NCBI GenBank assembly: GCA_963796685.1
Contig: CAWCMR010000025.1
Coordinates: 1,952,001 to 2,016,000 of the forward strand
Direction: 5' to 3'
Source of the DNA: an uncultured delta proteobacterium
GTDB taxonomy: Bacteria > Myxococcota_A > Polyangia > Fen-1088
Length of the DNA: 64,000 nucleotides
This document shows positions 10,101 through 64,000 of the stretch, piece after piece. The position numbers were made by a program, and so were the translations under genes. Position 1 is the first letter of the stretch. Each line of letters starts with the position of its first letter. The notes under the pieces were generated by a model. That model saw nothing but the letters and a program-made list of their open reading frames with translations, did no database searches and was not told where the DNA came from.

Positions 10101-10305
10101 GTGGGTCGACGAGCCGCAGAGAAAACACTGGCGCACGGTGCTGGGGGCCGTGCTCGATCATGCGCGTGACGGGTTCTACCCGCCGCTGCCCCATCCGGAT
10201 GGCTGCCCGATGTCAGCGGTGTACAGCGCCTTCTGTGATTTCAGCGAGATCTGCCGTCAGAGGGCCGGTTTCCGATCGGACGCGGGTGAAGAGGAGACGC
10301 CATGA
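7111..10305 (+). CDS. AddB/RexB-like protein: degenerate helicase plus PD-(D/E)XK nuclease with putative Fe-S cluster
   Basis: C-terminal RGSIDLV...IVDFKTG...QLALY RecB-type nuclease motifs; Cys in QCLWKAF and CPM...FCDFSEIC; RBS GGAGAAGG; ATGA overlap with the next gene. Confidence 0.78.
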   Translation: MANERTTVGGNEATGQAWLGPLAAALSADEPLLILCRTAASSRAVYRFLAEVSAGGGRKGYPSVRVTTPAALMGEAAPGRLRAMTAEEALEELPESHPWRARFEGRAGLRRMLRGHMVRVHEAALAGVPVEKLRPEIRSLLKAGWAAPSYLEGARRLLARPPQERCLAVGFPPRELEGMVAPLVRALLRSLNAQDVEAGAPATGRLPACKVPDVAAEARAVVREAVTALAANRRVLVLVANSDTEERVRAALARNGIPAADDAGEPLRRHALASIARPLLPLFFSRGAEPVEAEYLLRVLTDPVLARTAPAADSQTPRPKLRASVRHLRDMIVSCRRSRATLAEWQGAVDAIVQDAVAAVGEADDDRRAGGERRLESAQVLQSRLAEMSRHAGGAGTLGDLRSFLAGVGLADPENDRLGHAILRALGASYYRPATEDAYDEALSGAVGSGRIDRGVEILSYDAYDGRPAGMLLLTDLHNKGISRAPAPDPILTVEELAFVGVPPAVDRVRERIGVARWAASRASSSLALVAATDNSGRAVSPPLELALGPVRDDSQASYGFGFDLPERRDCRAFAEGKGAPTALAIQIDVEWARQGAWFDKPILVPAAEKKDSIVEYLAHDLPRISADLLPWLGQPQAYPESKHGLPDGFVLSASRCAGFTQCLWKAFCQSVLRLRAPEEIEEDLSAAEVGQSIHATMKQALVGVSLLVPEKKLEKTREDVRQRFQVAVGPAMDDNAPGLSSQALTLSRKGLAARWGQFFGSYLERRVREVEEAASGLRKGRVKILKESSVVMAVVDALAPNLAKSPRKDLARAVLETVTEVGSDVDAFLASPGLTATMAKKHKPIIEASLRDKKTRTLVEALCDEAGARLVDASYEGSGDLIVVAGEHPFGEITDKSEPMSLKLGRGLIPVRGSIDLVLLHRGADGGKGTAYQIVDFKTGKTGKSASLAATSVVEPQLALYALALEAMPPIDRKHPGPVRVTAAELDYLRDNVAQVWVDEPQRKHWRTVLGAVLDHARDGFYPPLPHPDGCPMSAVYSAFCDFSEICRQRAGFRSDAGEEETP

Positions 10306-13300
10306 GCAAGCGCATGCTGGCGACCGATCCAGGCGTCGAGGTCGTTGTGGCGCCCGCGGGCTCGGGCAAGACGACGCTGCTCATCTATCACTTCCTGCGG
10401 TTTCTCAAGGCCGGGATTCCCGTCGAGCGGCTGGTGGCCATCACCTTCACGCGCAAGGCAGCGGCAGAGCTGATGCAGCGGCTGGCGCAAGTGCTTCGCG
10501 GCGTGGTCGCGCCGGGGGATCTGCCGCCCGAGAATCTGGCCGAGGCCAAGACGATATATGGCGACGTCCTTCCGGGGTCGGAAGAGGCACGGGCGGCCTT
10601 GGCCATGCTGGATGCGGCGCCGGTCTCGACGGTTGACGCCTTCGCACTGTCGCTGGTACAGGAGTTTCTGCTCGATGCCGGCTTCGCGATGGGCGATGGG
10701 ACACGCGCTCTCATCGACGGGCCCGTGGTTTCTGGGGGTGACACGGCCTCGTTCTACAAGGCCGCAGCGCGGGAGCAAATCGAGGCTCTGGGCAAGCCAG
10801 CCCGCCTGCTGCTGGAGGAGATGACCTTTGGCGAAGCGGTCGAGGCTGTTGCCCGCCTGGCAACCTGTAAGTTGTCCGAGGTGTTGTCGATCGCGGCGGT
10901 GCTCGAGGCGGTGGGAAAGGCATTCGCGCCCGTGGTTCGCAAGGACAGTGATCCCTGGCTCGCTCTCGCTGACGGGCATCCGCGCGCACTGGGCGCCTGG
11001 CTGAAGACGCCCAAGGGCGTGCCACCGGTCTCGGTGCTGGCGCTGCTGGCGAAGGCCAAGAAGGACATGGGTGCGGAAGCGGACGAGGTGGTGAAGAAGT
11101 CGGTCCGCGAGCTCGGATGGAGTGCCGAGGGCGGCTTCTCCGGATTGAGTGCTGTTATGAGGAAGCGGCTCGAAACGTGGAGCGACGACAAGTCCGCCGA
11201 CCGGTGCGACAGGGTGCGGCTGGCCATACTGGAGTTGGCCGAGGGCACGCGCGACGTTGCTCTGCGCGAGATCGCCCGTAGCGGAAGCCTGGGCTACAAC
11301 GAGATCCTTCGTGCTGCCACCGAGCTGTGCCAATCGCCGCCGGCGCGGCTCGCGGAACGCTACGACGCCTTGCTGGTCGACGAGTTGCAGGACACCAACC
11401 CTGCCCAGCTCGCCTTCTACCAAGCCTTCGTGAAGATGCGGCGAGGTAAGATGCCCATTCGCTGGTTCTTTGTGGGCGATACGCGCCAATCCATCTATCG
11501 CTTTCGCGAAGCCGACCCCTTTGGCTGGCAGTCGCTGGTGGACGTCGCGCGAAGGCACGGGACGCTTGCCGAGCTGACGACCAACTACCGCTCGTCGCAG
11601 TTGCTGATCGAGGCCCAGCGGGATCTGTTCGGGCGACTGGCCAAGGCGTGTCCTGGCTCCGTGGACCCGCTGGATGATCTCGCGCCTAGGCCCAAGGCGC
11701 CGAAGGGTGAGATGGGGAAGGCGCAGCAGCCTGCGTTGATCGTCGATGCACCGGAGACCGGCGACGTGGAGCCCTACGTGCTGGCCGAATTCGCGACGCG
11801 CGTGAAGACCCGCTGGGGAGAAGCGAATCTCGCGAAGGAAACGGCGGCCGTGCTCGTGCGCTCGTGGTCCGTGGGCGCGTGGGCGGTCGAGGCCTTGCGC
11901 TCTCACGGTCTGCACGCGCAACTGACGGGCGACCGCGCGCTGCTCGCTTCGCGGCCTGCGGTGGACCTTCGTCTGTTCCTGCGCATGCTGATCGACCCGT
12001 CAGACGACATTGCGGTGGTCGGCGTGTGCAAGCACCCCTCGGTCGGGCTGAGCGATCGCGCCATCATGCTGCTGCGACACGAGAATCTGCTCGGGCGCTT
12101 GCTGGCGCCCGACGTAGACCTGACCTACTTGGAACCGTCCGAGGTTGAAGGACTGCGGCCCGTTCTGGATTCTCTCCGCCGGGCACGCAACCGCATCGGT
12201 CGCGAGTCCACGGCCGACGTTCTCGAACGGCTGCTGGCCGAGCTGCACGTCCGTCCGATCATCGCCGCGGGTCCCGAGGGTGAAGGCGATGTGGGCCTGG
12301 CCCAGATGGACATCCTGCTCGACATCGTGCGCGCGCAAGAGAGCGAGGGCGTGGACCCGCAAGCCGTTCTGGAGAAGTTGTCGGGCGAAGGGGTGGAGGG
12401 TGCCGAGGATCTGCCGGTGGTGCGGATGCACCACTCCGAGCAGGTGGTCACCGTGACCACGGTGTTTGGCGCCAAGGGCCTGGAATTCGACCACGTGGCC
12501 CTATTGCAGGTGGGAAAGGGCGGCAGCGACGGGAGCGTCAAGGCGAAAGCATTCTCCGTGTACCGTCCCCAGGGAAGGCCGATCCTTTCCATGGCGCTCG
12601 ACCCGACCGGCGGGATCGAGACGGAGCTGGATCCCCTGTCGGTCATTGCGCGGGTCGCTGGCGGCGACGAGGGCGTGCAGGAAGGGCTGCGTATGTTGTA
12701 CGTGGGTTTCACGCGCGCCAAGACCAGCGTGACGCTGGGCCTGAAGAAGGCCGGGACGGGCATCGTGCGCTTGCTGCGAGATGTGTTGGCCGAGGGACCG
12801 ATACCCGGTATCAGCACGGTCGAGCCAGACGACGACAAGTTGCGGCCAGCGGCGCCGTTGCAACGCCAGCGCACGGGTGTGCTGCGCCCCTTCGAGTCGT
12901 GTTGGGCCGAACCCGACGGGTTCGTCCTGACCCGGCCGTCGTCCGCCGCGGAGCTCGGGCTGGACGGGAAGGCTCTGGCAGCCGAATTCCGCGCGCGTGC
13001 CACCGTCGTCGCCGCGCCCGCGGAGCTGGCCATGCCCGCGGGAGAGGGACTGGCGGCCGTGTCCGACATCGTCTGGGGCAACGTGGTTCACGGCTGGCTT
13101 GAGCGTTGGGCTTTCAAGGGCACCCCCACCTCGGAGCAGGCCGTGGACTACCTGCGCGAGCAATGGTCGTCGGATGACAAGTCGATTTCCGACTGGCTGG
13201 TCGCCCTGGGGCTCGGGCTGCGCGACCGGCTGCCAGGATTTCGGGCGTTGCTGGACCAGAAGCACAAGCTCCACTTCGAATGGCCTCTGGTCGCCGTGGA

Positions 13301-48992: not shown

Positions 48993-50213
48993 TCACTCGA
49001 CTGGCTTTACCATGCGTCCCATGAAGATGATCGCGCCGCTCTTCACGTCGCGGATCAGGTACAAGAACGGATGGTTCGCATGGAAGATGACCGGTGGCGG
49101 TGGCGGCGGCCCCAAGGCTTGAGACTGGTTCACGAGATCCATCTCGAAAGCAGTTACCGCCGCAGCCGCCGTCCCCTTCTCGTTGGTTTCGAGCCAAGCC
49201 TTCTGGATTGCATCCCCGATGAACAGCCTAGTCTCGGTCACGCCCGAAAAGTCCGCGTGATTGGGATCGAAAGCCTGACGGATCCCCATCGTTTTCAGCA
49301 TGCCTACCAACGGCAACTCTGTCTCCACAGTGAAGCGGGGCAACTCCAGATCCACCTTCTTGTATTCCAGAGCTCCGATCCACCCGGCGTGCGAAGTGCC
49401 CAGCTGGTCCTCGATCCTCTCCAGGCCGTCAACGTCGCTCGGCAGAACCACAATCATCGACAGACCACCCTTGTAGGGCAGCTCGACCAGCTTTGCCCCA
49501 CCCACTTGCGCATACCGGAACATCGAGATCTGTCTCATCATCTTGACCGAGGTCTCTTCCTCCACGGTGGTGAACTTGCCGTCATAGGTCGCGCGTTCGT
49601 CGAACGGCTGCTGCCACCCACCCATCATGTAGACGGCATTGGCCAGGACCATGCGAGCCGCCGGGTTAAGCTTGCCGAGGATTTGCGGAATGCGGCCATG
49701 GGTCTCGTCGGAGGACCATTGGTTAATGGCGGACAGCGCGGCTTCGCGGTTAGTTGCGAAGTCCACCTTAGCCAGCGGCGCGTGAAAACCGTCGCGAAGC
49801 CGTGAAACATACTCCGGCCGCAGCTTGAGGTCTTTCTGCACCCACACGCGATCGGCCACGTTCAGCACCAGACCGTCATTACCGTTGCGCGATGTTAGTG
49901 CGTTGAGAATGGCGGCAAACGATCTATAGGTCTCGTCGAGGTTCGCGGGATCGATGTGCAGCGTGTGCAGCATCTCGTTCTGGGTTTCACCTTCCGCGCC
50001 CGCAGCGACCATGGTCAGCGCGATGGCTGCCCCGGCGGGCGAGCACACAAAGTTGTCCTGGTCTCTTCGAGCCTGGCGGTAGAAGTCGAATCCGAAGGCA
50101 TTGCAGGCCTTCACCGCCCCGTCTACTGTCGAGGCTTTGAAGCTGGAGGCGCAGCCTCCGGCTAACAAGGCCAACGAAGTCGCGGCAATGGCGGCGGAAA
50201 CGCGCATACTCAT
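48993..50213 (-). CDS. Serpin family protease inhibitor (lipoprotein)
   Basis: LLAGGC lipobox; NAFGFDFY, GAEGET, INQWSSDETHGRIP, LANAVY, LPRF, NEKGTAAAAVT hinge, FHANHPFLYLI, FMGR. Confidence 0.95.
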   Translation of the reverse strand: MSMRVSAAIAATSLALLAGGCASSFKASTVDGAVKACNAFGFDFYRQARRDQDNFVCSPAGAAIALTMVAAGAEGETQNEMLHTLHIDPANLDETYRSFAAILNALTSRNGNDGLVLNVADRVWVQKDLKLRPEYVSRLRDGFHAPLAKVDFATNREAALSAINQWSSDETHGRIPQILGKLNPAARMVLANAVYMMGGWQQPFDERATYDGKFTTVEEETSVKMMRQISMFRYAQVGGAKLVELPYKGGLSMIVVLPSDVDGLERIEDQLGTSHAGWIGALEYKKVDLELPRFTVETELPLVGMLKTMGIRQAFDPNHADFSGVTETRLFIGDAIQKAWLETNEKGTAAAAVTAFEMDLVNQSQALGPPPPPPVIFHANHPFLYLIRDVKSGAIIFMGRMVKPVE

Positions 50214-50370
50214 GACTCCAACACTAGCGAGTCCCATGGAGAACACAAGCGGTGCTGCTTGCTCAAACTGACTCACTACCGTCTGGTCGATCAGTCGCAG
50301 ATTTTGCTACAAGCGATTGTCCAGCGATATCAAGGTGTTGCACTGCGGTGGCTCTAATGAGCAAGATATC

Positions 50371-50396
50371 TCTTGACAAGGCGTGATGTGTCAAGA
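50371..50396. promoter_or_regulatory. Perfect palindrome containing TTGACA on both strands, between divergent genes
   Basis: TCTTGACA-N10-TGTCAAGA. Confidence 0.55.
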
Positions 50397-52184
50397 TAAA
50401 AAGGCACTGTGTCAGAAGGGTGGTAATTCAGATGCATAATGGATCTAAGTCCCGGTGGTTAGTCGCGTTCATTGGTAGCGTCGTCGCCCTGTACTTTGGT
50501 TGCATCTCTGATCCTTTGCCCAAACGCTCCATCTCGACGCCAGATGGTGCCACAGAGGCCGCGCCGCTTATGCCCGAACTCAAGGACCAACCGGGCACAA
50601 GGGTGCTCAAGTGCACGGACGCCTACGGCTCCTCATCGCGCTATGCAGTCGATGATATGACCCGCAAGTTGGTGCGGTTCCCGAGCCTTGCAGCGTCCAT
50701 CGGCCTTACCTCTGTCAGTAACTGTGACGAGGCGATATCCTATGCCGGCGGCTACGATGAGTATTCGGGGCGCAACCCTGGCTTTGAGGAGCGCCCTGAT
50801 CCTAAATGGTCGGGCAATCCACCAACGGTGGACGATCGCGCGATCTTACCGAGGATCAAAGTGAAGGGCGGCGGGAAGACCGACACCTGGGCATTCCCTA
50901 CCAAGGATCATCCCGGCACCAGTCCGGGCCCTGTTGTTAAGATCGAGTCCGTATCTTGGTGGCCAAATGGGCAAGAGCAGATATTCCACAAGACTGCGGC
51001 AGATGGCATTGAATATAACGCCAACCAGTTCTGCGAGATATCCAGCAGCTGTACGGCCTTCTTTATCAACAGAAGTTGGCTATTGACGGCGGCCCACTGT
51101 ATGCAGAACGTGAACAAGTTCCCGGTGACTTACAATCCAGTCATGGTAGACGGACTCCTCACGTGCCAGTATCCTAGCGAGCCTAATCCTGCTTCCACTG
51201 ACCCCAAATACCCCCAAACTGGTGACCACAACGATTACCTTCCGGGCAAGGACATGCATGCGTCACATACGGGAGTTGCCCGCTACGTAATCTCTTGGCC
51301 AGCGAACGGTGATTACCCAAACGACGCTAATCAAGGTGTCTACTCGGTGCGATCAAATGCAGAGGAAATCTACTATGGAGTAGGCCTGTATCAGTTCCCG
51401 CATGAACAGTATGACCCGACGCAGGGTCAGCCCGACCTCAAGCAACCGGAAAACGTGGGCTCGCCAATCAGGCGCGGTCCCGATGTCGCGCTTCTCTCCA
51501 TGGCCAACTGGACCTCAGCGGCCGAATACATGGCACCTGACCTCGACAACGAAGCAGCAATGTACATAAAGGGAAAGCCGACATCGGCGACCGGGAACCC
51601 TGGCGCCGGCCTAACCTTCTGGGTCGCTGGTTATGGGTATAATCCGGCGCAGAACGATGGCGCGCTGTATGACGGAGTTCTGACGGGCAATGTGACATTC
51701 ACGGCTGATTGGCAGGACCAGGACACAAACAACAGGTTCGGCGGCTTCGGTAGCGTTTCGATGAACGTGACCTCTTTGGCCGAAGTCATCGTTTGCTCGG
51801 GAGACTCAGGCTCCCCGCTTTACACGGTGTTCACACCTGTCGATGGCGGACCCAGAAAGTTTATCGCATACGCCGTCCATTCCGGGGCATATCAAGCTCC
51901 ACCGGATGACGGTCGGGCGTGTTCGAAGCCGCCGGGTGACATTCTCTACTGGTCGCGAATAGAGGCTGATGACAGGTTGAGACAGTGGATGAATGTCAAG
52001 ATGGCTAATGGCCCCATAGCAACGACGGAAGATGAACAGGGTAAGTACAACCAGTGCCAACCCATGACCGACGCGGTCAACGGCTTGTACTACAAGTGCT
52101 GGGGAGATCCGTGTGACGGCCTAGATAAAGATGGCTCCTCGCTGTCTAAAATGGACGCGAGGTTGGTTGTTCCGCTAATCTTCC

Positions 52185-53462
52185 GTGGTGCAAAATCCAA
52201 GTTCTGGTCTTGACGTCAATGCGCTTTTTACAGTGGCTCTCGGCATGGTCAATCCATGGGAGGTCGTAGAGCTGAACCTTGACGCCGAGAAGAAGCGCCT
52301 CGACATCAAAGTCGACTTCAAGCCGGGGAGCACCTTCCCTTGCCCTACGTGTGGCGATGCTTGCAAGGTACACGATGCCTCGCCGCAGACATGGCGACAC
52401 CTGAACTTCTTCCAGTACCTCACCTATGTCGAGGCAAGACAACCTCGAACCAAGTGTGACAAGCACGGCGTCTTGACGGTCGATGTGCCATGGGCTCGTG
52501 GCGGGTCGAACTTCACCCTTCTCTTCGAGGCGATGGTGGTGGAACTGGCACGCAACGGCCTCACGGTGGCGGCGGTCGGTCGCATCGTCGGCGAGCATGA
52601 CACGCTCCTGTGGCGCATCCTGGAACACTACGTGGACGAGGCCCGTGAGCGAGCCGACTACAGCCAGGTCGCCGAGGTTGGCGTCGACGAGACTTCGCGG
52701 CAGAAGAACCACGTCTATGTCACGGTCTTTGCCGACATGGTTGCGGCGAAAGTCTTGTTCGTCACGGAGGGGAAAGATCACGGCACGGTGGCTTGTTTCA
52801 AGGACGATCTGCTCGCTCACGGTGGAGACGTGAAGAAGGTGACGGACTTCAGTCTCGACATGTCGCAGGCATTCATCAAGGGCATCTTGGAGACGTTTCC
52901 GGCGGCGCACCTAACCTTCGACAGGTTCCATGTCATCCAACTCATGAACGACGCAATCGATGAGGTGCGAAGGCAGGAGCAGAAGTCCTCTCCGGAGTTG
53001 AAGGGCACGCGCCACGACTGGCTGAGGAACGAGGCCAACATCAAATCCGAGAACAGGGAGCACTTCGCGGTCTTGCGCTCCTCCAAATTGGCCACTGCGC
53101 GGGCCTACCACATCAAGCTCATGCTACAGGAGTTGTATAGCCTGAGTGCGGATGAAGCGGAGGCGTGGTTTCAGCGCTGGTATTTCTGGGCCACCCATAG
53201 CCGATTGGAACCCGTCATCAGGGCCGCCAAGACCCTCAAGGCGCACCAGGCAGGCGTGATGAGATGGTTCATGTCAGGCCTGACGAATGGTCTCTTGGAA
53301 GGACTCAACAGCCTCATCCAGGCGGCCAAGGCGCGGGCGCGTGGCTTTCGCTCCGCGCGCAAAATGAAGACTGTGATTTATGGCTCCTCGCTGTCTAAAA
53401 TGGACGCGAGGTTGGTTGTTCCGCTAATCTTCCGTGGTGCAAAATCCAAGTTCTGGTCTTGA
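52185..53462 (+). pseudogene. ISL3 transposase of the outer copy, C-terminus replaced
   Basis: Identical to 53434-54696 up to KMKTVIY, then reads into the inner copy's left end. Confidence 0.85.
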
Positions 53463-54705
53463 CGTCAATGCGCTTTTTACAGTGGCTCTCGGCATGGTCA
53501 ATCCATGGGAGGTCGTAGAGCTGAACCTTGACGCCGAGAAGAAGCGCCTCGACATCAAAGTCGACTTCAAGCCGGGGAGCACCTTCCCTTGCCCTACGTG
53601 TGGCGATGCTTGCAAGGTACACGATGCCTCGCCGCAGACATGGCGACACCTGAACTTCTTCCAGTACCTCACCTATGTCGAGGCAAGACAACCTCGAACC
53701 AAGTGTGACAAGCACGGCGTCTTGACGGTCGATGTGCCATGGGCTCGTGGCGGGTCGAACTTCACCCTTCTCTTCGAGGCGATGGTGGTGGAACTGGCAC
53801 GCAACGGCCTCACGGTGGCGGCGGTCGGTCGCATCGTCGGCGAGCATGACACGCTCCTGTGGCGCATCCTGGAACACTACGTGGACGAGGCCCGTGAGCG
53901 AGCCGACTACAGCCAGGTCGCCGAGGTTGGCGTCGACGAGACTTCGCGGCAGAAGAACCACGTCTATGTCACGGTCTTTGCCGACATGGTTGCGGCGAAA
54001 GTCTTGTTCGTCACGGAGGGGAAAGATCACGGCACGGTGGCTTGTTTCAAGGACGATCTGCTCGCTCACGGTGGAGACGTGAAGAAGGTGACGGACTTCA
54101 GTCTCGACATGTCGCAGGCATTCATCAAGGGCATCTTGGAGACGTTTCCGGCGGCGCACCTAACCTTCGACAGGTTCCATGTCATCCAACTCATGAACGA
54201 CGCAATCGATGAGGTGCGAAGGCAGGAGCAGAAGTCCTCTCCGGAGTTGAAGGGCACGCGCCACGACTGGCTGAGGAACGAGGCCAACATCAAATCCGAG
54301 AACAGGGAGCACTTCGCGGTCTTGCGCTCCTCCAAATTGGCCACTGCGCGGGCCTACCACATCAAGCTCATGCTACAGGAGTTGTATAGCCTGAGTGCGG
54401 ATGAAGCGGAGGCGTGGTTTCAGCGCTGGTATTTCTGGGCCACCCATAGCCGATTGGAACCCGTCATCAGGGCCGCCAAGACCCTCAAGGCGCACCAGGC
54501 AGGCGTGATGAGATGGTTCATGTCAGGCCTGACGAATGGTCTCTTGGAAGGACTCAACAGCCTCATCCAGGCGGCCAAGGCGCGGGCGCGTGGCTTTCGC
54601 TCCGCGCGCAAAATGAAGACTGTGATTTATCTGCTGCTGTCAAAACTGGACTTCAGACTTCCCTGTGCATTTCCCAATTCAATCCATTCCAAATAGCGAG
54701 GAGCC
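53382..54705 (+). mobile_element. ISL3-family element (inner intact copy, 1324 bp)
   Basis: Both IRs present; 8-bp TSD TGATTTAT (53374-53381, 54706-54713). Confidence 0.95.
53434..54696 (+). CDS. ISL3 transposase (intact)
   Basis: CPTC, WRHLNFF, VPWAR, GVDETS, DMS, DRFHV, NGLLEGLNS, KARARGFR. Confidence 0.95.
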   Translation: MVQNPSSGLDVNALFTVALGMVNPWEVVELNLDAEKKRLDIKVDFKPGSTFPCPTCGDACKVHDASPQTWRHLNFFQYLTYVEARQPRTKCDKHGVLTVDVPWARGGSNFTLLFEAMVVELARNGLTVAAVGRIVGEHDTLLWRILEHYVDEARERADYSQVAEVGVDETSRQKNHVYVTVFADMVAAKVLFVTEGKDHGTVACFKDDLLAHGGDVKKVTDFSLDMSQAFIKGILETFPAAHLTFDRFHVIQLMNDAIDEVRRQEQKSSPELKGTRHDWLRNEANIKSENREHFAVLRSSKLATARAYHIKLMLQELYSLSADEAEAWFQRWYFWATHSRLEPVIRAAKTLKAHQAGVMRWFMSGLTNGLLEGLNSLIQAAKARARGFRSARKMKTVIYLLLSKLDFRLPCAFPNSIHSK

Positions 54706-55065
54706 TGATTTATCTGCTGCTGTCAAAACTGGACTTCAGACTTCCCTGTGCATTTCCCAATTCAATCCATTCCAAATAGCGAGGAGCCATAAAGATAACG
54801 GAAGCCAACACTGGTGCGACGACTACCAATCATGTGTTGGGTCTGGCAAGCAGCTTGATGATCAGCACCGTCCGTGCCTAGGCTGCCCCAATGCCCCGGC
54901 TGACAAGCCTTGCTCGTGTATCATGGGGTACTGCCAGTGGGACTCAGCAAAATTGGCCAACGCCGGTTTCGGAGGTGCGGGTGGAGCAAGTGGCGCGGGG
55001 GGGTCTAGCGGTGAGGGTGGCTCCACAGATGAGGGTGGCTCCACAGGTGAGGGAGGAAGTGCACC

Positions 55066-58000
55066 ATGAAAGGGTATACCGTGATGTTGAGGCGATCCGG
55101 CTCAGCCTTTGCGGTGCACGGCCTCCCGGCCTATCGTGCGCTCTTGGCCGCAACGATTCTGGCTGCAGCCGTCGGCTGCAGCTCGAAGGATGACGCCACT
55201 GGGAATGACCGCACAGGCTCAGCCGTGGTTGCGGCGAGGTCGAAAGCAATCATTACCGTGACCTCCACGCAAACCGCGACCGGAACCGTGACATCAACAG
55301 CCTACGGGACCAATTCCTGGACATCACTCGGGACGGTGACGACCACGGCCCTCGGAACGGTGACCTCGACGGCACTGGGGACCGTGACGACTACGGCGCT
55401 CGGGAGCCAGACCTGGACTTCGTACGGGACCGTTACATCTACCGCGCTCGGAACCCAGACTTGGACGTCGTACGGGACGGTGACATCGACGGCACTTGGG
55501 ACGGTGACATCAACGGCACTTGGGACGGTGACATCAACGGCGCTTGGGACGGTGACTACGACAGCATTGGGGACGGTGACGTCGACAGGGTTGGGAACGG
55601 GAACTGTGACGGCGACCGTAACAAACACTGCGACGATGATATCGACAAGTACGCAATACGTCACGGTGACCGGCACCGTTTCTGGGACGTGGACTGTGAC
55701 GGCGTGGTCCACTGGTTCTTGGACGGGCCCCGCCACCAAGACCCAGACGACGACGAACGTTTCCCCCAATCAGAAGCCTGTTACATCTAGCATCACTGGG
55801 ACCAAGACAGCCACCGATACCTCTGGCTACAATAGCGGAGTAACGAAGACCGTCACGGGCACGGTCACACAATTTGCCACCTGGGCGGGGACAACGACTG
55901 TCACGATGAGCGACACCGCGACCGGGACAAACCACTACAGTGGTTCTGGCACGCGAACGGTCAGCGGGACCGCGTCCAATACCGGAACGGCTACAGGCAC
56001 TTGGACCTACAGACTTACAAGTACGGCAACTCAGACGGCCCACAACACGGTGACGAACTACAATACACTGACGAACTACAATACCGTGACGGTCTATAAC
56101 ACGGTAACGAGCTACAACACGGTGACGGTATCGAATACGCTAACGAACCACAATACCGTGACGGTATCAAATACGCTGACAAACCACAATACCGTGACGA
56201 TTTCCAATACGGTGACAAACTACAACACCGTGACGAATTCGAATACGGTGACAAACTACAACACCGTGACGAATTCGAATACCGGGATCGTCACCACGAC
56301 GGGTACGGGCACGGCGACGGCAACTTCAACCAACACAGTTACGATCATCGTTCCGTTCCCAGTTGGGCTTGGGGTTGACACCAGGGCTGTCGGTGCTAAC
56401 GGGTCGCTTCAGGTGGGGGATCGTTCCAAGTCTCAGATGGGCGACGGCACGCCTGGCCCAATGTCCAACGCAGGGAGCGGTGTGGCAGATATCGGGGTGG
56501 ACTGCCAAATTGGAAGCCTGACCAGCCTAGGTTCGGTCTCGCTGCGGGAACGGGCACATATTCTTGGAAATCTGACGACATCGGGCACGGTGAATCCGCA
56601 AAACGATACCGTGGTTACCGGAACGACAACCCAGAATGCAGTGTTGACGCCGCTCTCGATCATGGCCTGGAGCACAGTGGTTCCGGCGACGAACATGGGC
56701 AACGTCCTACTCTATCCCGGTAGCAATGCCACGGTGAATCCTGGCGCGTACACAGATCTTACCGTCTACACCGGGTCAAACATGACCCTGACTTCTGGCA
56801 CGTACTACGCAACATCGTTCGATATCGAGCCGCAGGCGACGCTGACCCTTAATATGACCTCGGGCCCGATCGTGGTGTACGCGACCGGGGCAATCGTATA
56901 CAGGGGGACCATGGTGAACCAGGGGGGGACTGACGGAGCCTTCATGCTGGTCGAGTTGGGCGACACCGATATGGCCGTCGAGAACACATTCATCGGCACC
57001 ATCGTGGTGCCCAACGCGACGTTGACGTTGGGGGCAACCGTTCCCCTCACACTGCAGGGCCAGTTCTATGGGCAGAATATCGTCGTTCGCCCGGATACGA
57101 CCCTGGCGGCGAAATCGTTCCCGTGGACTGCGCTTAACCCGCCGTCCGGGGGTGAGTGCTGGTCCGCTGACGACACGGACAACGACGGGGTGTGGGATTG
57201 CCATGACAAGTGCCCGTACGATAAGAATAAGACAGAGCCTGGCGTCTGCGGTTGTAACATTCCTGATGTCAATAGCGACAGCGATGTAGCTCCCGACTGC
57301 ATCGATCAATGCCCCACTGATCCTAACAAGACCACGCCGGGACAGTGTGGGTGCCTGGACAAAGGATTTACAGCTGCGGGAACGCCATGCACCGACCGAC
57401 CCTGCCCACAACTTGGGCCACAGGAAGACACGGTGTGCAATGGCATGGGGGCCTGTGGAGATGTGAGCTCGTGCATACCAAATGAGGGGGACTGCAAGCT
57501 CTTAACCCTGGGCCAGATGGCCTATTATTTCTGCGACGCCACCTCGATGCCAGGCGAGCCACCACCTGCGGGGACTCCTCAGGCGAACGCAGAAAACGCC
57601 TGCCGGCAGAAAGGCATGGCGTTGATAAGTGTTGAAGACGCCACGAAGAACGAGAACATCCGGCGGATGCTTTCGGCGCCTATCTGGCTTGGGGCGAATT
57701 CCCTCTCAACCGCGGGTGTGTGGAGATGGGCGACGGCGGCCACAGACGACGGCAGCCAGTTCTGGAGTGGCGGTGCGAACGGGTCTAGGGTTGGAAACAT
57801 GTATGTGAACTGGGCAGCCAATGCCCCAGCGGATGGACAGTGTGCAGCGATGAACCCGGCAGATGGAAAGTGGTTTGCTGCAGACTGCGGATCGAACCTG
57901 GGCTATGTCTGCGAGTATTGGATGCCGTGGGCGAGCGTGCCCCCTCTTGGTGGTCCCCCAGTCCCGCTAGCTCCGCCGCCGATGGATAAGTGTACCCCCG

Positions 58001-60747
58001 AGAGCGCATCGATAGCCCAGCTGCCGCAGCCCGTCGGGAATCCTCCATCGGATGCCGCAATTCTTGCTGCTCAAGACGAGCTGCTGTGGCAGATAGGGCA
58101 CCCCGATGCAGGACAAGGCGCAGCGAGGAATCCTCCTGGGCCAGGCTCAACCTGTCCTCAGCCTGACCCATCGACCCTCGCGCTAGGACCAGTAGGACCA
58201 AGCGGACTGGCCGGGGTAGGCTGTCAGATTACAAACCAGAAGCTAGTTGACGGAGGGGCAGCTGGGGAGTGTACCAGCGATGAGCAGTGTCAGAGGAATT
58301 TTGGCGCCTCATATGTCTGTCGCGAGATCATGGATGATCCGCAGTGTCCAAAGACCTACGACCCGAACACCGACGCTTCACCGTGTAAGGAACGCGCCTG
58401 GTGCGTTGTTCTTGACTGTTCAGGACTGACGCTTCCAGGTGATAATAATCCATGCGACGAGATCCAAATCTGCAATCCGGGCAGCGAGTATGACGCCGGC
58501 GTGGATCCTGACACGAGATGGGATCCCCCGACTTTCGATCCTGGTCCGCTATTCCCGGGTGGCACGGTTCCCGACGCGAGCCCATCATCGGCCTTTAACA
58601 AAGATGATCCGAACCCGGGCGAAGCCGATGCAGGTGTGAACCACCCGTGGTGCAAGTTCACCACGCAGAACCCAGCGATGCCTGCGGCGGATCAACCAGG
58701 CAACAACAGCCCTAGTGCGAAGACTGATCAGAGCAAAGCAATCAGCCTTAGCTTCGACCCCAAGCTCACCTTCAATATCAACATAAGCCCAATTGCGATG
58801 GGCGAGACTAACCTTTCGATCAGGGCAGGGGCGAGTATGGGCGCGACGGTAAAGATCAATTCGTTCCTGGGAATGCCCTCGATGGAGAAGACCATACTCT
58901 ACGCTGGCGCAAGTCTTGCCCTGGAACGGTGCACTTTCCGAACAGACGATACACGACTTGAGCTCTTCGGCATCAATGTCCCGATCGACGACTATGTTCC
59001 TATCCTCAACACATCGATTAACCCGGAGGATCCGAGCACCGGTGACCCGAACCATTCAAACCAGGCGTTGTACAATGTCAGCAAGGCTTGCACGGATGCG
59101 CTGAATACGTACCAGGTCTGGTCCGGTCGCGTGAAGAAGTCTTTCCGCGATGCCCAACAGCTTCTCAAACAGTATCACGCCTTGGCCGGTATGCTGAACA
59201 AGGACAGCCTGTGTGCTGCAATCGAGTCGGTTGGCCCCGAGGTTCATGACTTTCCCGGTGGCGCAAAGTGCTACGAGAATGAATCGGTCGAGGACCTCAT
59301 CAATCGGTTCGTCTACTATTATCAAGCTCCGGGTATCGGACAGGTCACCAAGATGAAGGCCATGGCAGGCGGGCTGAAAGGTGCAAGCGCCGCGCTAATC
59401 CAGGGGATTATCGGAGCGTTGGCGGCGAAATGGAAGGAGGGGGGGCCGGGTGACTCAATGATTGAAATCAATTTCCTGAAGATCGACCATCCATATGCCC
59501 AGACCATCGCAAACGTGCCGTTCGCTATCGGTCCAATACCATGTGTGCTGCAGGTCGACATTGCGGCCAACTATGGCATCGTCGGCAATTTCGGGCTCGA
59601 CCTCAATTTTCCGACGGATATCCTTTTCGGCGACCCACCAGTATATGGACAACAAATAGCGCATGCTCGGGCGCAGGTTGTACCTTATGCGTCGGCGAAG
59701 TTGTCGGCATTTGTCGGAGCTGGATTTGACTACGGACCGTTCTCTGCAACATTAGGTATCGAAGGCTCGGTCAGTCTTGCGAAGATCCGCCTACCGATGT
59801 ACGGGGGAGCGGGCCTTGACGTGGATGTGCTGCAAGATTACCGCCCAATTCCTACTGACGTCGGGCCCCCCGTCTCCATAGCAACAAATGCTTTCAGTTT
59901 CGGGATTCCGAAAAACTTTACCTTCCACGCCACATACGACTATGGGATCAGGGTTGACGTGGACGACATTCTAGCTGGGGCCATCAATGCCCGGCTTCGC
60001 ATCAAGTTCGGCTGGTTTTTCAGCAGGACCTGGCGCAAGCAGATCGCGAAGTTCAATGGCATGAGTTTCCACAAAGACATTCTCGAGGGTCAAGGTACGA
60101 TTGCGAACGTTAACGTCAATTTGAGCCGCAACACACCTCCGCTGCCACCAACGGGGGCTTCTGCCCAGCTGCTTGGGGCTCCCGATGGTACGAAGGTGGA
60201 CGATGCAACGGCTACCACCGCGGTAGGTAACGCCACGATGGGGATTTCGGAGAGCGAAGTGCCATTGACTGTTCTTGCCTATCTGCCCGGCCCGGGCGAC
60301 CCGAACTACCACTATACTCCGGGGACTCTACCCGACGGTGGGGTCGGCGTTGATGGCGGACCGACCGGGCCAGGCCAAGTGACCTTCGAGAAGCTGGCAG
60401 GGTTGTTCTACGATAATCAGTGCTGCGCAAAGCTGGGAGATGCCTGCGAGGTAGACTATACCCCGTACCCGCCTTGCTGCCCAGGCACAGATTGCACTCC
60501 GGATACGAATGCTCCGTCGGTCAAGCACTGTACACAAGGGTGTCGAGCTCAAGGGGTGGAGTGCACAGGCGGTGGCCAGTGCTGCCCAGTCAATGACAGT
60601 GTGATTTGCAACAGTTCTGGTCTCTGCGGGACCTGTTCCAAAGGGCCCCCCGAGGACAGCCTAGGATGCACGACCGATGCGGACTGCTGCTACAACTATG
60701 CCTGCTATCATGGCGACCACTGTGTTTACCAAGGCGTCATCTACTGA
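55066..60747 (+). CDS. 1893-aa multidomain surface lipoprotein: Thr-rich repeats, beta-helix, TSP3 repeats, C-type lectin, beta-sheet domain, Cys-rich tail
   Basis: AAVGC lipobox; TVTSTALG and xNTVTN arrays; PGAY...GTYY...FIGTIVVP beta-helix; DTDNDGVWDCHDKCP; CTLD YYFC...IWLGAN...WRW...YVNW...GKW...YVCE; CC-rich end. Confidence 0.85.
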   Translation: MKGYTVMLRRSGSAFAVHGLPAYRALLAATILAAAVGCSSKDDATGNDRTGSAVVAARSKAIITVTSTQTATGTVTSTAYGTNSWTSLGTVTTTALGTVTSTALGTVTTTALGSQTWTSYGTVTSTALGTQTWTSYGTVTSTALGTVTSTALGTVTSTALGTVTTTALGTVTSTGLGTGTVTATVTNTATMISTSTQYVTVTGTVSGTWTVTAWSTGSWTGPATKTQTTTNVSPNQKPVTSSITGTKTATDTSGYNSGVTKTVTGTVTQFATWAGTTTVTMSDTATGTNHYSGSGTRTVSGTASNTGTATGTWTYRLTSTATQTAHNTVTNYNTLTNYNTVTVYNTVTSYNTVTVSNTLTNHNTVTVSNTLTNHNTVTISNTVTNYNTVTNSNTVTNYNTVTNSNTGIVTTTGTGTATATSTNTVTIIVPFPVGLGVDTRAVGANGSLQVGDRSKSQMGDGTPGPMSNAGSGVADIGVDCQIGSLTSLGSVSLRERAHILGNLTTSGTVNPQNDTVVTGTTTQNAVLTPLSIMAWSTVVPATNMGNVLLYPGSNATVNPGAYTDLTVYTGSNMTLTSGTYYATSFDIEPQATLTLNMTSGPIVVYATGAIVYRGTMVNQGGTDGAFMLVELGDTDMAVENTFIGTIVVPNATLTLGATVPLTLQGQFYGQNIVVRPDTTLAAKSFPWTALNPPSGGECWSADDTDNDGVWDCHDKCPYDKNKTEPGVCGCNIPDVNSDSDVAPDCIDQCPTDPNKTTPGQCGCLDKGFTAAGTPCTDRPCPQLGPQEDTVCNGMGACGDVSSCIPNEGDCKLLTLGQMAYYFCDATSMPGEPPPAGTPQANAENACRQKGMALISVEDATKNENIRRMLSAPIWLGANSLSTAGVWRWATAATDDGSQFWSGGANGSRVGNMYVNWAANAPADGQCAAMNPADGKWFAADCGSNLGYVCEYWMPWASVPPLGGPPVPLAPPPMDKCTPESASIAQLPQPVGNPPSDAAILAAQDELLWQIGHPDAGQGAARNPPGPGSTCPQPDPSTLALGPVGPSGLAGVGCQITNQKLVDGGAAGECTSDEQCQRNFGASYVCREIMDDPQCPKTYDPNTDASPCKERAWCVVLDCSGLTLPGDNNPCDEIQICNPGSEYDAGVDPDTRWDPPTFDPGPLFPGGTVPDASPSSAFNKDDPNPGEADAGVNHPWCKFTTQNPAMPAADQPGNNSPSAKTDQSKAISLSFDPKLTFNINISPIAMGETNLSIRAGASMGATVKINSFLGMPSMEKTILYAGASLALERCTFRTDDTRLELFGINVPIDDYVPILNTSINPEDPSTGDPNHSNQALYNVSKACTDALNTYQVWSGRVKKSFRDAQQLLKQYHALAGMLNKDSLCAAIESVGPEVHDFPGGAKCYENESVEDLINRFVYYYQAPGIGQVTKMKAMAGGLKGASAALIQGIIGALAAKWKEGGPGDSMIEINFLKIDHPYAQTIANVPFAIGPIPCVLQVDIAANYGIVGNFGLDLNFPTDILFGDPPVYGQQIAHARAQVVPYASAKLSAFVGAGFDYGPFSATLGIEGSVSLAKIRLPMYGGAGLDVDVLQDYRPIPTDVGPPVSIATNAFSFGIPKNFTFHATYDYGIRVDVDDILAGAINARLRIKFGWFFSRTWRKQIAKFNGMSFHKDILEGQGTIANVNVNLSRNTPPLPPTGASAQLLGAPDGTKVDDATATTAVGNATMGISESEVPLTVLAYLPGPGDPNYHYTPGTLPDGGVGVDGGPTGPGQVTFEKLAGLFYDNQCCAKLGDACEVDYTPYPPCCPGTDCTPDTNAPSVKHCTQGCRAQGVECTGGGQCCPVNDSVICNSSGLCGTCSKGPPEDSLGCTTDADCCYNYACYHGDHCVYQGVIY
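55285..55596 (+). repeat. 13 x 24-bp coding tandem repeat (TVTSTALG)
   Basis: Counted units: TVTSTAYG, TNSWTSLG, TVTTTALG, TVTSTALG, TVTTTALG, SQTWTSYG, TVTSTALG, TQTWTSYG, 3x TVTSTALG, TVTTTALG, TVTSTGLG. Confidence 0.92.
56041..56274 (+). repeat. 13 x 18-bp coding tandem repeat ([Y/S/H]NTVTN)
   Basis: Counted 13 full units from HNTVTN to YNTVTN, followed by a partial SNT. Confidence 0.92.
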
Positions 60748-60866
60748 GGACTCAAGTTTACTCGGTCGATGCGAAGTGCCGCGCGGCTTTCGGCTTTGCT
60801 TGTTATCACAGCGCTATACGCATCCGCCCCGAAGCTATCCCATCGATTTCAGGAGAGACACGAGAG

Positions 60867-62780
60867 GTGCAGTTGCGAACGATTCATGCAGTAGCGATTG
60901 GCTGTCTGGCCTCTTGCCAGCCGGCCGGACGGACTAGCGTTAAAGCAGCGCGGGAATCGAGCGCTGTTGGTGCGGCGCACTCGACGCAGACGAGGGCACT
61001 TGCGCCGGCCCCGTCTCCACCGGGGGCGATTTGGGCCGCGGGAAAGGTATACGATTTCCGCGTACATTCGACGGCGATGGTTGACTTTGGCAGCGCGGCA
61101 AGCGGGATCAGCTACGAGCTTGAAGCAAGTCCCAGGATCATGGTGGTCGACCATCGCGGGGATCGTACGACCCTCTATCTACGGCTATTGGGAGTTACGG
61201 TCAGGAATCCCCAGGCCAACGGCGGAGCGAACTTCGACCAGTTGGCGCAGGAGCTTCGTGAAGGCGCATGTCTGGCTGTGTTGTCCAGTGGACGCTTGGT
61301 AGAGCTCGGCTTTCGAAAAGGCGTCTCCAACGCGGCATTGGCCACCTTCAGGCAGCTAGCTTCAAGTCTCCAACTGGCGAAGCCGGGGACTGGTAGCTCC
61401 TGGCAGGCGGAGGAGTACGACACGAGTGGGCAGTATGTGGCGCAATATACTTTTGACGATGGGTCAAAGGTCTATCGCAAGGAGAAACTGCACTACCTGG
61501 CTCTGCTAGGGAGGCCTGTTGTGCCTGGTGTGGGGCCGCTCCAACTGGTTCCAGAGGTCAGAAAGTCAACAGGCGAAATCCGCCTGACCCACGATGGTGC
61601 CCTTGAGCTGGTGGACCTTGAAGACGCAGTGGTCCTGCAGGGCGCGCAGGTGCCCATGCTTTCTGAGACGCATCTCGTGCTCAATCTGACGGCGGTTGGG
61701 ACATCGGGAGTGGCAACCGATCCGACTCGGCTGAGATCAGAGTTCACGATTATGCCGGCCTCGGAGCAAGGCGCCAACATGCCAAGCCTGGAATCTTTGG
61801 ACCGGGCGCGGACGCAAGGGGCTACCTTTCGCGCAATTCTATCCCGCATTGAAGCGGAGCGTGAGACTCGCCAGCGCGAGACATCCAAGAATGTTCCAAA
61901 GCGCAAGAGCCAATCCGCGCACGGACAGCAGCAGATAAGCGTTAGAGCCATTGGTGATGTCGGGCTATTCAATGCCTTGGTTGCGTCGCTTCGCGAGAGC
62001 CAAGAGGCAGTGGATACAGCGGTGCGAATGATCAAGGAGGAGTCTCCCCTTCTCGACGTGCTGATCGACGCTTTGGGCTCGGCCTCCAACCCGGGATGCG
62101 AGGCTGCCTTGACGGGATTGCTGTCGTCCGCAGATTCGGAAACCAAGCCTCGCATTCTGTATGCGCTGTCACAGGCGCCCAGACCTGGCGACAAGGGTGT
62201 GGCGGCGATGAAAGCGTTGCTGGCAGAAGATCCCTTCAGCCAGACCGGCCTTTACGGGCTTGGGAGCTATGCCCGGCGATTCGCTGAGCAGGGGAACAAA
62301 GAAATGGCGGCTGAATTGGGCGAGTTTTTGATTCAGAAGCTGGAGAAAGCGCACGGGGCGACGAACAAGATTACGGCGCTGCGAGCCATTGAGAACTCAG
62401 GATACGCGCCGGCGATTAGCAGCTTGCAGCGATATTTCGACGATCCGGATCCGTTCGTTCGCACCGCCGCTATTCGAGCTCTTCGGCCGATGAAAGATCC
62501 CTTGGTGGCTGATGTCCTTGCTTCTCGAATCAGGTCAGATCATTCTTCCGAGGAGAGGCTGCTTCTCTTGGAGATTGTTGAGAGCAGGGAGCCGTCCAAC
62601 ACGCTGATTGGAGCGGTTGTGGATGCGTCGAGCACTCTCGACGTGAAGGTGCGTCGGCAAGCTGTCGGGCTATTGGCCAAATGGGTTGCCGGGCAACCAC
62701 AGTTGCGACAAGTGCTCAGGAAGATAGGCGAATCCGATTCCGATCCGCAGGTCCGCGCCGCGGCGCGCGTGGATCTCTAG
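60867..62780 (+). CDS. Lipoprotein with vitellogenin/MTP-like N-terminal beta domain and HEAT repeats
   Basis: GTG start with RBS; IGCLASC lipobox; GKVYDF...QEL...GRLVEL...FRQLASSLQL...EYDTSG pattern; HEAT repeats DPFVRTAAIRAL, DPQVRAAA. Confidence 0.7.
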   Translation: MQLRTIHAVAIGCLASCQPAGRTSVKAARESSAVGAAHSTQTRALAPAPSPPGAIWAAGKVYDFRVHSTAMVDFGSAASGISYELEASPRIMVVDHRGDRTTLYLRLLGVTVRNPQANGGANFDQLAQELREGACLAVLSSGRLVELGFRKGVSNAALATFRQLASSLQLAKPGTGSSWQAEEYDTSGQYVAQYTFDDGSKVYRKEKLHYLALLGRPVVPGVGPLQLVPEVRKSTGEIRLTHDGALELVDLEDAVVLQGAQVPMLSETHLVLNLTAVGTSGVATDPTRLRSEFTIMPASEQGANMPSLESLDRARTQGATFRAILSRIEAERETRQRETSKNVPKRKSQSAHGQQQISVRAIGDVGLFNALVASLRESQEAVDTAVRMIKEESPLLDVLIDALGSASNPGCEAALTGLLSSADSETKPRILYALSQAPRPGDKGVAAMKALLAEDPFSQTGLYGLGSYARRFAEQGNKEMAAELGEFLIQKLEKAHGATNKITALRAIENSGYAPAISSLQRYFDDPDPFVRTAAIRALRPMKDPLVADVLASRIRSDHSSEERLLLLEIVESREPSNTLIGAVVDASSTLDVKVRRQAVGLLAKWVAGQPQLRQVLRKIGESDSDPQVRAAARVDL

Positions 62781-62812
62781 AGGATGTTTTCTTCTGCATG
62801 TGGAGAAATGGC

Positions 62813-64000
62813 ATGATTGAAGCCAGACACGTCATACGGGTATGCAGCGGCAGCAGGTGGCTCATTGCGGTCGCGGCTTGCATTCTATTATTCGGTGATG
62901 CCTGCCGGGAGTCGGGCAGCGGAGCTGGGGTCCGGGATGGAGGAAAGCAGGACGCATTCGCGAATATGAGCACAAGTGATGTTACTACAAGCGACTTGAA
63001 TGGAAACGACGCGGGTACATCTGGAAACGTGGGAGGCTCCGAGGTAGGCTCGGTGATCGGTGGGGACACTGCCGAGGGCAGAGAGGCGAGCGCCGAGGTC
63101 GACGCACGGTTTCAGGTGGATGTGGGCAGCGGCGCATCAGCGGACGCGCTGGATTCTTCTTCATGGTCGCCAGCCTGTTCGGCATATGCGAAAGCGGCAT
63201 GCACGCTGATAGCCTGTATCCCGAGCGGCTTGCACGTGCTATTCGGCAGCGAGCAGAACTGCGAGAATCGATACGGAGGTGCCGCCTGCGAAGCACAGAT
63301 GACGAGCGTGGGAAGCCATGTCACACAAAGCAGCCTCGCAGCCTGTGCCCAGGCACTGGCAACGGAGAGCTGCGCGGAAGCCAGGACGGAGTTCCCGGCA
63401 GAGTGTTCATGGCAAGGCGATCGAGCGAACAATTCCCCGTGTACCTACGCCCAGCAATGCGAATCAGGGGTGTGCGTGCCGGCCACCGGTACGTTCTGTG
63501 GCACGTGCCAAGCAAAGCTACCCGTTGGCGCATCCTGCCCGTCTACCGCGCATGCGTGCCAGAACGGCCTGGTGTGCACGGATAGCGTTTCATCTGGTGG
63601 CGACTGGTTCTGCACGGAGCCGGGGTCAGAGGGGGATGCGTGCGTATCACCGGCACAGTGCGCTTGGGGGCTAACCTGTTTTGGCGCACGCTGTGTCCGC
63701 GTGAGGAGCCAGGGAGATGCCTGCACTAACACAGTCGAATGCGATCAGGGGCAGGATCTGACGTGCAGTCCGAACGTCAGCGGAATCGCGAGCAGTTGCA
63801 TCCCTCGGACGTACGCCGATGCCGGCGAAAGTTGCGGTACGACGGCAGCGATGGAGTGCCTGGATAACGCGAGCTGCGTCGACAAGACCGGCAGCCCGGC
63901 GGTTACCGGGGTTTGCAGCGCGTCTGCCGCGAACGGGGAATCCTGTGAAATCGGCACTACTAATTGTCAGTATCCAGCCCTTTGCATAGGTGGAAAGTGC
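62813..64000 (+). CDS. Secreted Cys-rich lipoprotein (runs off the window end; not in the ORF track)
   Basis: Manual translation MIEARHVIRVCSGSRWLIAVAACILLFGDAC..., then ACSAYAKAAC, CESGVC, CGTC and GxxC repeats; no stop found before 64000. Confidence 0.78.
   Translation, partial: MIEARHVIRVCSGSRWLIAVAACILLFGDACRESGSGAGVRDGGKQDAFANMSTSDVTTSDLNGNDAGTSGNVGGSEVGSVIGGDTAEGREASAEVDARFQVDVGSGASADALDSSSWSPACSAYAKAACTLIACIPSGLHVLFGSEQNCENRYGGAACEAQMTSVGSHVTQSSLAACAQALATESCAEARTEFPAECSWQGDRANNSPCTYAQQCESGVCVPATGTFCGTCQAKLPVGASCPSTAHACQNGLVCTDSVSSGGDWFCTEPGSEGDACVSPAQCAWGLTCFGARCVRVRSQGDACTNTVECDQGQDLTCSPNVSGIASSCIPRTYADAGESCGTTAAMECLDNASCVDKTGSPAVTGVCSASAANGESCEIGTTNCQYPALCIGGKC

Follow-up and report, generated by a model that had tools for sequence, protein, structure and literature searches.

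A large lipid transfer protein (LLTP) resembling MTP, but assembled from separate chains, appears to be encoded in two halves by adjacent genes of a myxococcotal soil bacterium, a reading to which we assign a probability of about 0.55. The genes lie in a 64,000-nt stretch of DNA from an uncultured delta proteobacterium (GenBank assembly GCA_963796685.1, contig CAWCMR010000025.1, positions 1,952,001 to 2,016,000; hereafter the window), where they form two open reading frames (ORFs) on the forward strand, the first for a 1893-aa lectin-containing protein, designated here as the giant protein, and the second for a lipoprotein (Table 1). LLTPs comprise vitellogenin, MTP, apoB and the apolipophorins and serve yolk formation and lipoprotein transport in animals. 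To our knowledge, they have been described as proteins of animals, and their fold has been treated as an animal or eukaryotic invention. An initial annotation of this DNA had proposed a split LLT system at the locus and named three outcomes that would speak against it, namely no structural similarity to LLT domains, no predicted interface between the two proteins and no conserved gene pairing. None of the three occurred, and the proposal is supported overall.

The lipoprotein carries the N-terminal module of LLTPs, and its homology to this module is hardly in doubt. The AlphaFold2 (AF2) model (predicted local distance difference test score (pLDDT), 89.1; predicted template-modelling score (pTM), 0.78) shows strands at residues 60–297 and about twenty helices at residues 308–636. 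When this model was compared with the PDB by Foldseek, the best 11 matches were all LLTPs, including MTP (1.4e-19), lipovitellin (8.3e-17), apoB100 (1.7e-15), honey-bee vitellogenin and the apoB barrel alone (1.3e-9), while HEAT and alphaRep proteins appeared only from about 5e-5. The structural alignment with MTP covers MTP residues 27–615, with 17% identity in the N-module. Since the alignment extends to around residue 615, and the helical domain of MTP ends at residue 603 according to PMC6717300, the C-terminus of the lipoprotein corresponds to the end of the MTP helical domain. The C-terminal lipid-binding sheets (C and A) are not present in the same chain, which stops at residue 637.

Sequence comparison led to the same family. 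Pfam Vitellogenin_N (PF01347) matched with an E value of 4.2e-11 and 42.6 bits against a cut-off of 24, at residues 366–544 only (profile positions 324–525 of 590), and HEAT_2 matched with an E value of 2.3e-18. Because the Vitellogenin_N match is confined to helical residues, the Pfam result alone could have arisen by cross-matching of HEAT repeats. However, a profile built from 98 members of the family retrieved lipovitellin (1lsh_A, E 8.8e-16) and MTP (4.3e-11) from the PDB sequences, and its positions 50–173 aligned with the barrel of honey-bee vitellogenin (chain residues 19–149) at an E value of 0.082. Thus, both an LLTP-type N-terminal barrel and a helical domain directly after it, the latter above the gathering score, were found. 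Among 20 relatives from other loci, PF01347 matched 14 at E ≤ 0.001, 13 of them with at least 24 bits, and left six unmatched. The signal sequence of the lipoprotein ends in the lipobox ...IGCLASC, whose Cys17 is kept in at least 90% of the 98 relatives; the lipobox signals of both proteins were judged by eye. Taken together, AF2, Foldseek, Pfam and the length of 637 aa bear out the LLT-type N-terminal pattern, the helical HEAT domain and the subsequent stop that the initial annotation had read from this gene. The string EYDTSG, which it had quoted, lies within the most conserved motif of the family, in which D185 and G188 are invariant.

At E ≤ 1e-3, an exhaustive search for the lipoprotein family yielded 1299 representatives, of which 200 also passed E ≤ 1e-30, and the best 150 were 190–701 aa long, mostly about 600–700 aa. 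Long upstream open frames (992–1426 aa) were considered as N-terminal fusions and rejected, as they are stop-free GC-rich DNA preceding ordinary signal peptides. NCBIfam offered no meaningful name for either the lipoprotein or the giant protein.

The candidate partner of this module is a beta-rich domain of about 280 residues in the C-terminal region of the giant protein, which we designate bH. It consists of short strands (N-part), a helical insertion in the case of the giant protein, and then long amphipathic strands (core). The model of giant residues 1200–1780 (pLDDT 75.9, pTM 0.71) shows, in its own numbering, short strands at 27–106, long helices at 134–256 and strands of 16–33 residues at 266–472. 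Alternation of hydrophobic and polar residues exceeded that of shuffled sequences in five of the 11 predicted strands (p < 0.01), and the N-part strands 1226–1239 and 1251–1264 were amphipathic with p at most 0.004. The long amphipathic strands that had been noticed at the C-terminal end of the giant protein were confirmed in this way; they reach 33 residues and hold all three strings quoted at the time. The core is characterized by the family motifs FxxGPxP, P-Y-A, GxEG..L, LxG and W/F..G, and no Pfam family matches bH.

Residues 1200–1780 are common to 49 proteins of 1067–1945 aa, the giant protein included, and 47 of the 49 have Lectin_C. This giant/lectin subfamily is rare (3 of 401 sampled genomes of the phylum), and bH itself is present in 67 of the 401 genomes at 120 places. 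In other genomes, the neighbours of lipoprotein homologues share with the giant's C-domain its strand parts but not its insertion, which appears as a gap in the alignments of small bH proteins. The carriers range from about 350 to about 4000 residues, with the domain at or near the C-terminus, and several of them have Dicty_CTDC, TSP3_bac or Lectin_C modules. The giant protein had originally been regarded as the partner as a whole. It does carry the partner, but the partner proper is this domain of its C-terminal region, borne elsewhere by proteins of very different sizes.

A minimal pair was found in the complete genome of a cultured bacterium, Archangium gephyra SDU49 (NZ_CP102578.1), in which a lipoprotein gene (positions 9719–11779 of the locus) is accompanied by a gene for a bH protein of 393 aa (11958–13136). 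The nearest Atlas structural clusters of the small bH protein are unnamed families, one of Bacteroidota (474 aa, template-modelling score (TM) 0.62) and one of a 645-aa 'Lipoprotein', most frequent in Pseudomonadota (TM 0.54). Since these clusters lie outside the phylum, the bH fold may reach beyond Myxococcota.

We consider it very likely that the lipoprotein and bH form a conserved functional pair. Their distribution was counted without bias in the 401 genomes, which were sampled evenly across the phylum. PF01347 itself, when used as a genome query, missed the window's own gene and matched none of 14 control genomes, and it was replaced by purpose-built alignments. The lipoprotein was detected in 49 of the 401 genomes, a floor value obtained with a stricter first look, and the match rows were merged into 70 places. 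At 55 of the 70 places, bH was encoded within 6 kb on the same contig (within 2.5 kb at 54), and 46 of the 49 genomes with the lipoprotein had bH. Seen from the other gene, the lipoprotein was found within 6 kb at 56 of the 120 bH places. The gene pairing, on which the initial annotation had made its proposal depend, is therefore conserved. In the window's own genome, each gene is present in a single copy, and the two are adjacent.

Individual loci showed the same arrangement. Among the first 20 loci with a lipoprotein homologue, which are a biased sample because they were chosen partly through the giant protein, bH stood alongside in 16, one being a decayed copy; of the other four, two were divergent members, one was a partial gene for the helical part alone, and in one the contig ended within the partner gene. 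A related-locus search with an 8-sequence alignment gave 2 loci. A second batch of 20 loci was drawn from known adjacent pairs and is informative on orientation only. In the 35 fetched loci with both genes, the two were on the same strand in 31, and bH was upstream in 27 of these 31, as in the window. Within the genus of the window, the pair is patchy: of 12 genomes from other species, one has the lipoprotein and four have the giant's C-domain. A decayed pair was observed in one congener (L019; G004:C7:267028-267938): part of the C-domain of the giant protein (76% identity across 141 residues) directly adjoins part of the lipoprotein helical domain, in which a TAG stop occurs. On a different contig of that genome, a more distant pair is intact (L020).

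The two proteins probably bind each other physically, as judged from co-folding of lipoprotein residues 58–590 with giant residues 1219–1677 in three runs and with three controls. The interaction prediction score from aligned errors (ipSAE) was 0.69, 0.69 and 0.72, as compared with 0.00 for the best control, and a predicted interface between the two proteins, as the initial annotation had envisaged, accordingly exists. At the ipSAE mark applied, 58 of 80 solved complexes passed, as did 2 of 110 mismatched pairs, a calibration that is only rough because purpose-built alignments were used. Contacts agreed by at least 75% among the runs, and the pLDDT of the partner was 60–62. The predicted interface comprises 300–350 contacts and involves 75 lipoprotein residues, 32 in the barrel and 43 in the helical domain. 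On the bH side, it involves 19 residues of the N-part (within 32–36 and 86–119, in the numbering of the 1200–1780 model) and 34 of the core (within 276–303 and 346–357), and none from the helical insertion. The most confident contacts join lipoprotein residues 458–530 to residues 95–116 of the bH N-part, which rests in the complex model against the C-terminal half of the lipoprotein helical domain. Hallmark motifs of both families, D185/G188 of the lipoprotein and F287–P293 of the giant's C-domain (same numbering), are situated within the predicted interface.

Whether bH corresponds to the lipid-cavity sheets of LLTPs is the weakest step of the argument, and we regard the odds as even. The C-domain of MTP consists of six short strands and six strands twice as long, over about 280 residues (PMC6717300), and the bH model shows the MTP-like pattern of short and then long strands. 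In a Foldseek search with the giant's C-domain, MTP residues 577–882 were aligned over 243 residues, the longest alignment among the matches listed. MTP was the sole match that covered both the N-part and the core, and a second MTP entry was aligned at 613–882. With the lipoprotein aligned to MTP 27–615 and the C-domain to MTP 577–882, the join between the two halves falls at the end of the lipoprotein–MTP alignment. In addition, the Atlas model of the 393-aa Archangium bH protein matched an arthropod vitellogenin cluster, in the part of PF09172 (Vit_open_b-sht), with TM 0.47 and 281 residues aligned.

On the two-chain LLTP reading, the lipoprotein would contribute the barrel and the helical clamp, equivalent to approximately residues 27–615 of MTP, and bH would contribute two amphipathic sheets, one short-stranded and one long-stranded, like the C- and A-sheets in MTP residues 604–884. 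The short strands would dock onto the helical domain, at its C-terminal half, and the long ones would probably lie against the barrel, enclosing a hydrophobic space for lipid or a similarly greasy cargo. Targeting of the module would fall to the N-terminal part of the carrier, which is variable and consists here of a Thr-rich stalk, Cys-rich modules and a C-type lectin. The shared hydrophobic cavity is a proposal, and lipid as its cargo is a tentative assignment. A cell-surface location and a role in predation or scavenging, as proposed initially, are possible.

A number of results weigh against this reading. The MTP alignment mentioned above had a Foldseek probability of 0.07 and a TM of 0.08, and nothing usable came from the comparison of this C-domain with the PDB, the single match at E ≤ 0.001 being a phage maturation protein (probability 0.16, TM 0.08). 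Of the two regions that the initial annotation had proposed to compare with animal LLTPs, the lipoprotein had LLTPs as its top 11 Foldseek matches, and the giant's C-domain had no significant Foldseek match to them. The Atlas model that matched vitellogenin is poor (pTM 0.48, pLDDT 0.60), and its TM lies below 0.5. An Atlas feature search with the domain from the window stayed at noise level (best score 0.78), a Pfam scan relaxed to E 10 with six bH domains returned no LLTP family, and the bH profile had 0 matches among the PDB sequences. Regarding the complex, besides the rough calibration, the predicted interface held no excess of conserved residues (Fisher p 0.33 and 0.16). The complex score may also be in part the model's memory of single-chain LLTPs; if such memory explains the pass, likeness is shown rather than binding. 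A search for longer, fused single-chain forms of the lipoprotein yielded none, which is weak evidence. At 64 of the 120 bH places, there was no lipoprotein match within 6 kb. When five such 'bH-only' genomes were re-searched at full sensitivity, G164 and G332 had a divergent lipoprotein adjoining bH, whereas G001, G006 and G382 had none, with only weak HEAT-like matches away from bH. Finally, swapping partners between paralogues within genomes lowered the distance-matrix correlation only weakly and not significantly (364 of 4608 swaps reached the observed value), and the result of free permutation (0 of 2000) merely reflects shared ancestry.

These points leave room for other explanations. Conceivably, bH inserts into a membrane, either as an outer-membrane barrel that anchors or exports its carrier or as a pore on prey, with the lipoprotein as a plug, assembly factor, chaperone or self-protection partner and without any transfer cavity. 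The lipoprotein would then hold an amphipathic sheet as LptE does in LptD, or as the MTP N-module chaperones apoB. An autotransporter barrel likewise has about 12 strands in about 280 residues, the amphipathic bH strands carry charges on one face, an aromatic residue directly after the domain forms the C-terminus of some small bH proteins, and bH occurs in genomes without the lipoprotein. Weak Foldseek matches include the pore hairpins of perforin, MAC and pleurotolysin, and TonB-dependent receptor clusters appear in the Atlas at TM about 0.3. A canonical closed barrel, however, would not be expected to give a Foldseek TM of at most 0.13, strands of 23–33 residues are long for a membrane barrel, and about 210 residues follow bH in the window, including a disulfide-rich tail. 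Moreover, the predicted interface sets bH on the barrel and clamp as in a single-chain LLTP, and framing a lipid sheet is the only known job of the lipoprotein's family. We consider membrane insertion unlikely on balance.

It is also conceivable, albeit quite improbable, that the lipoprotein does nothing but tether bH-tagged adhesins or lectins to the envelope, the LLTP fold being a cargo-free docking clamp. The great diversity of bH carriers, which span lengths of about 350 to about 4000 aa and in many cases have Dicty_CTDC, TSP3_bac or Lectin_C modules, resembles that of proteins bearing a sorting or anchoring tag, at least 90% of the relatives keep the lipobox Cys, the complex prediction passes under this explanation as well, and the LLTP barrel in animals is also a receptor-binding surface, as indicated by the title of entry 9bd8. 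On the other hand, the giant protein and the carrier at another locus (L028) have lipobox-like signals of their own and would need no tether, an interface of 300–350 contacts around two amphipathic sheets far exceeds the needs of a tag, and the hydrophobic faces of the long strands demand a greasy partner or cargo. Accidental adjacency of two independent proteins, which the two nearby insertion sequence (IS) copies and the lower GC content might indicate by making the gene order recent, and with which same-genus relatives having the giant's C-domain without the lipoprotein would agree, is nearly excluded: bH accompanies the lipoprotein at 55 of 70 places in the 401 genomes, 31 of 35 fetched pairs are same-stranded, the decayed copy of a congener keeps abutting remnants of both genes, and the predicted complex scores 0.69 as compared with 0.00.

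The remaining features of the locus are listed in Table 1. The giant protein is composed of, in order, a lipobox-like signal (...AAAVGC, Cys38), Thr-rich repeats, Cys-rich modules, a C-type lectin domain, bH and a Cys-rich tail, and Lectin_C is its sole Pfam match. As each of the two proteins has a lipobox, both are expected to be exported. The tails of two relatives of the giant protein match Pfam Toxin_12 (PF07740; ion-channel inhibitory toxin), that of L021 with an E value of 2.1e-5 and that of P0037 by precomputed annotation.

Table 1. Coordinates of the giant protein gene, the lipoprotein gene and their parts in the window
Feature	Position	Strand	Basis
Giant exported protein, 1893 aa, carrier of bH	55066..60747	+	ORF, translation
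Thr-rich tandem-repeat 'stalk'	55325..56282	+	TRF arrays, periods 24/48 and 18/36/72 nt
C-type lectin domain, residues 840–950	57583..57915	+	Pfam PF00059, E 9.7e-11, 42.8 bits vs cut-off 22.6
bH N-part, residues 1226–1305, strands of 14–15 residues	58741..58980	+	AF2 model 27–106
Helical insertion, residues 1333–1455, giant/lectin subfamily only	59062..59430	+	AF2 helices 134–256
bH core, residues 1465–1671, long amphipathic strands of 16–33 residues	59458..60078	+	AF2, alignment, profile searches
Cys-rich knottin-like tail, residues 1786–1893	60421..60747	+	Cys positions
Shine-Dalgarno-like AGGAG	60851..60855	+	11 nt 5' of lipoprotein GTG 60867 (sequence)
Lipoprotein, LLTP N-terminal module (beta-barrel, then helical domain), 637 aa; lipobox LASC, Cys17	60867..62780	+	
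Beta-barrel domain, residues 60–297, with invariant EEYDxxG motif (D185, G188)	61044..61757	+	
Alpha-helical HEAT-like domain, residues 308–636, counterpart of LLTP helical clamp	61788..62774	+	Pfam, PDB profile search

The second ORF is open from 60606 to 62780, and its true start is the GTG at 60867, from which the homologues of the lipoprotein align. The 119-nt gap between the two genes contained no terminator-like site in a promoter and terminator scan, in which the number of sites was no higher than in shuffled sequence. Neither gene is a chance ORF, since each protein has dozens to hundreds of relatives; the names under which homologues are filed include 'Polyangiaceae bacterium', 'Myxococcales bacterium' and Archangium gephyra and point to Myxococcota as the phylum of the organism. 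A lookup of sequencing runs listed no RNA run with the locus, and two soil-metagenome DNA runs contained 0.05–0.06 of the words sampled from it.

Upstream of the giant gene, two ISL3-family insertion sequences stand in direct tandem at 52131–54790, ending about 280 nt 5' of the gene. Their transposase ORFs are at 52185–53462 and 53434–54696, their ends are inverted repeats, their left ends share a 300-nt identical stretch with a spacing of 1249 nt, and an exact 83-nt duplication lies by the copies at 54623–54788. The GC content is 0.56–0.60 at 50001–64000 as compared with 0.61–0.70 elsewhere in the window. The low GC content, the IS copies and the patchy occurrence of the pair among congeners (one of 12 has the lipoprotein) suggest that 50001–64000 is a horizontally acquired island. 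A 597-aa ORF at 50420–52213, with a short Trypsin match (residues 206–235, E 3.1e-9) as its sole match, is possibly truncated or disrupted by the insertion, as its 3' end overlaps the left terminus of the first IS copy. Downstream of the lipoprotein gene, an ORF at 62681–64000 that continues past the window specifies an exported protein that is rich in Cys and has VAAC as a possible lipobox; it has no Pfam or NCBIfam match, and the other loci compared did not show it as a conserved third gene.

Among known systems, the large subunit of MTP is the closest in build. Its C-domain (entries 6i7s and 8eoj; description in PMC6717300) shares with bH a construction of six short and six long strands in about 280 residues, and its C-sheet contacts the helical domain in the C-terminal half, where the predicted contacts also place the short-strand part of bH. 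MTP, however, is a single chain of the endoplasmic reticulum lumen with PDI as a partner, whereas the bacterial system is encoded by two genes with lipoprotein signals and has no PDI partner; here, bH has a helical insertion of about 120 residues and is embedded in a 1893-aa lectin protein, and sequence identity of bH to MTP is undetectable. The likeness to lipovitellin and vitellogenin (1lsh, 9enr and 9ens) consists of the Vitellogenin_N pass, the profile match to 1lsh_A and the Atlas match of the small bH protein (TM 0.47). Unlike vitellogenin, a single chain of more than 1500 aa, the bacterial pair consists of 637 aa and a domain in trans, has neither a vWD domain nor a polyserine tract and shows no large funnel cavity. 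In comparison with the beta-alpha1 region of apoB-100 (9bd1, 9bd8 and 9e9r), there is no belt of thousands of residues and no evidence of particle formation. As for outer-membrane barrels with a lipoprotein (LptD/LptE; autotransporters such as NalP), the scores of bH against them stay within noise and concern just its core, its lipoprotein partner differs from LptE in being an LLTP module, and the domain is not always C-terminal.

A literature search, in which subscription journals and supplements were out of scope, found no paper on bacterial LLTPs. A bare PF01347 hit is not new, since it is already precomputed for these proteins in a protein collection. The new elements are the evidence for the barrel, the definition of bH as an unnamed domain family, the conservation of the gene pairing and the prediction of a complex.

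If the two-chain LLTP reading is true, the pair would provide a tractable bacterial system for studying the assembly of clamp and sheets and the loading of lipid, and the Archangium gephyra pair with its 393-aa partner is the most practical one for experiments. It would also be a test case for the origin of the LLTP family. Myxococcota make sterols. In the abstract of 10.1101/2024.11.01.621555, they are discussed as a source of eukaryotic sterol biosynthesis. It is possible, though we put it forward with some reserve, that Myxococcota possess a widespread two-chain LLTP, in which a portable bH on varied surface or secreted carriers would allow modular pick-up or delivery of lipids or sterols at targets, and that the LLTP fold would thus have a prokaryotic relative, be it an ancestor or the product of an ancient transfer. 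The pair would then represent a candidate mechanism of lipid capture or exchange in predatory, social bacteria.

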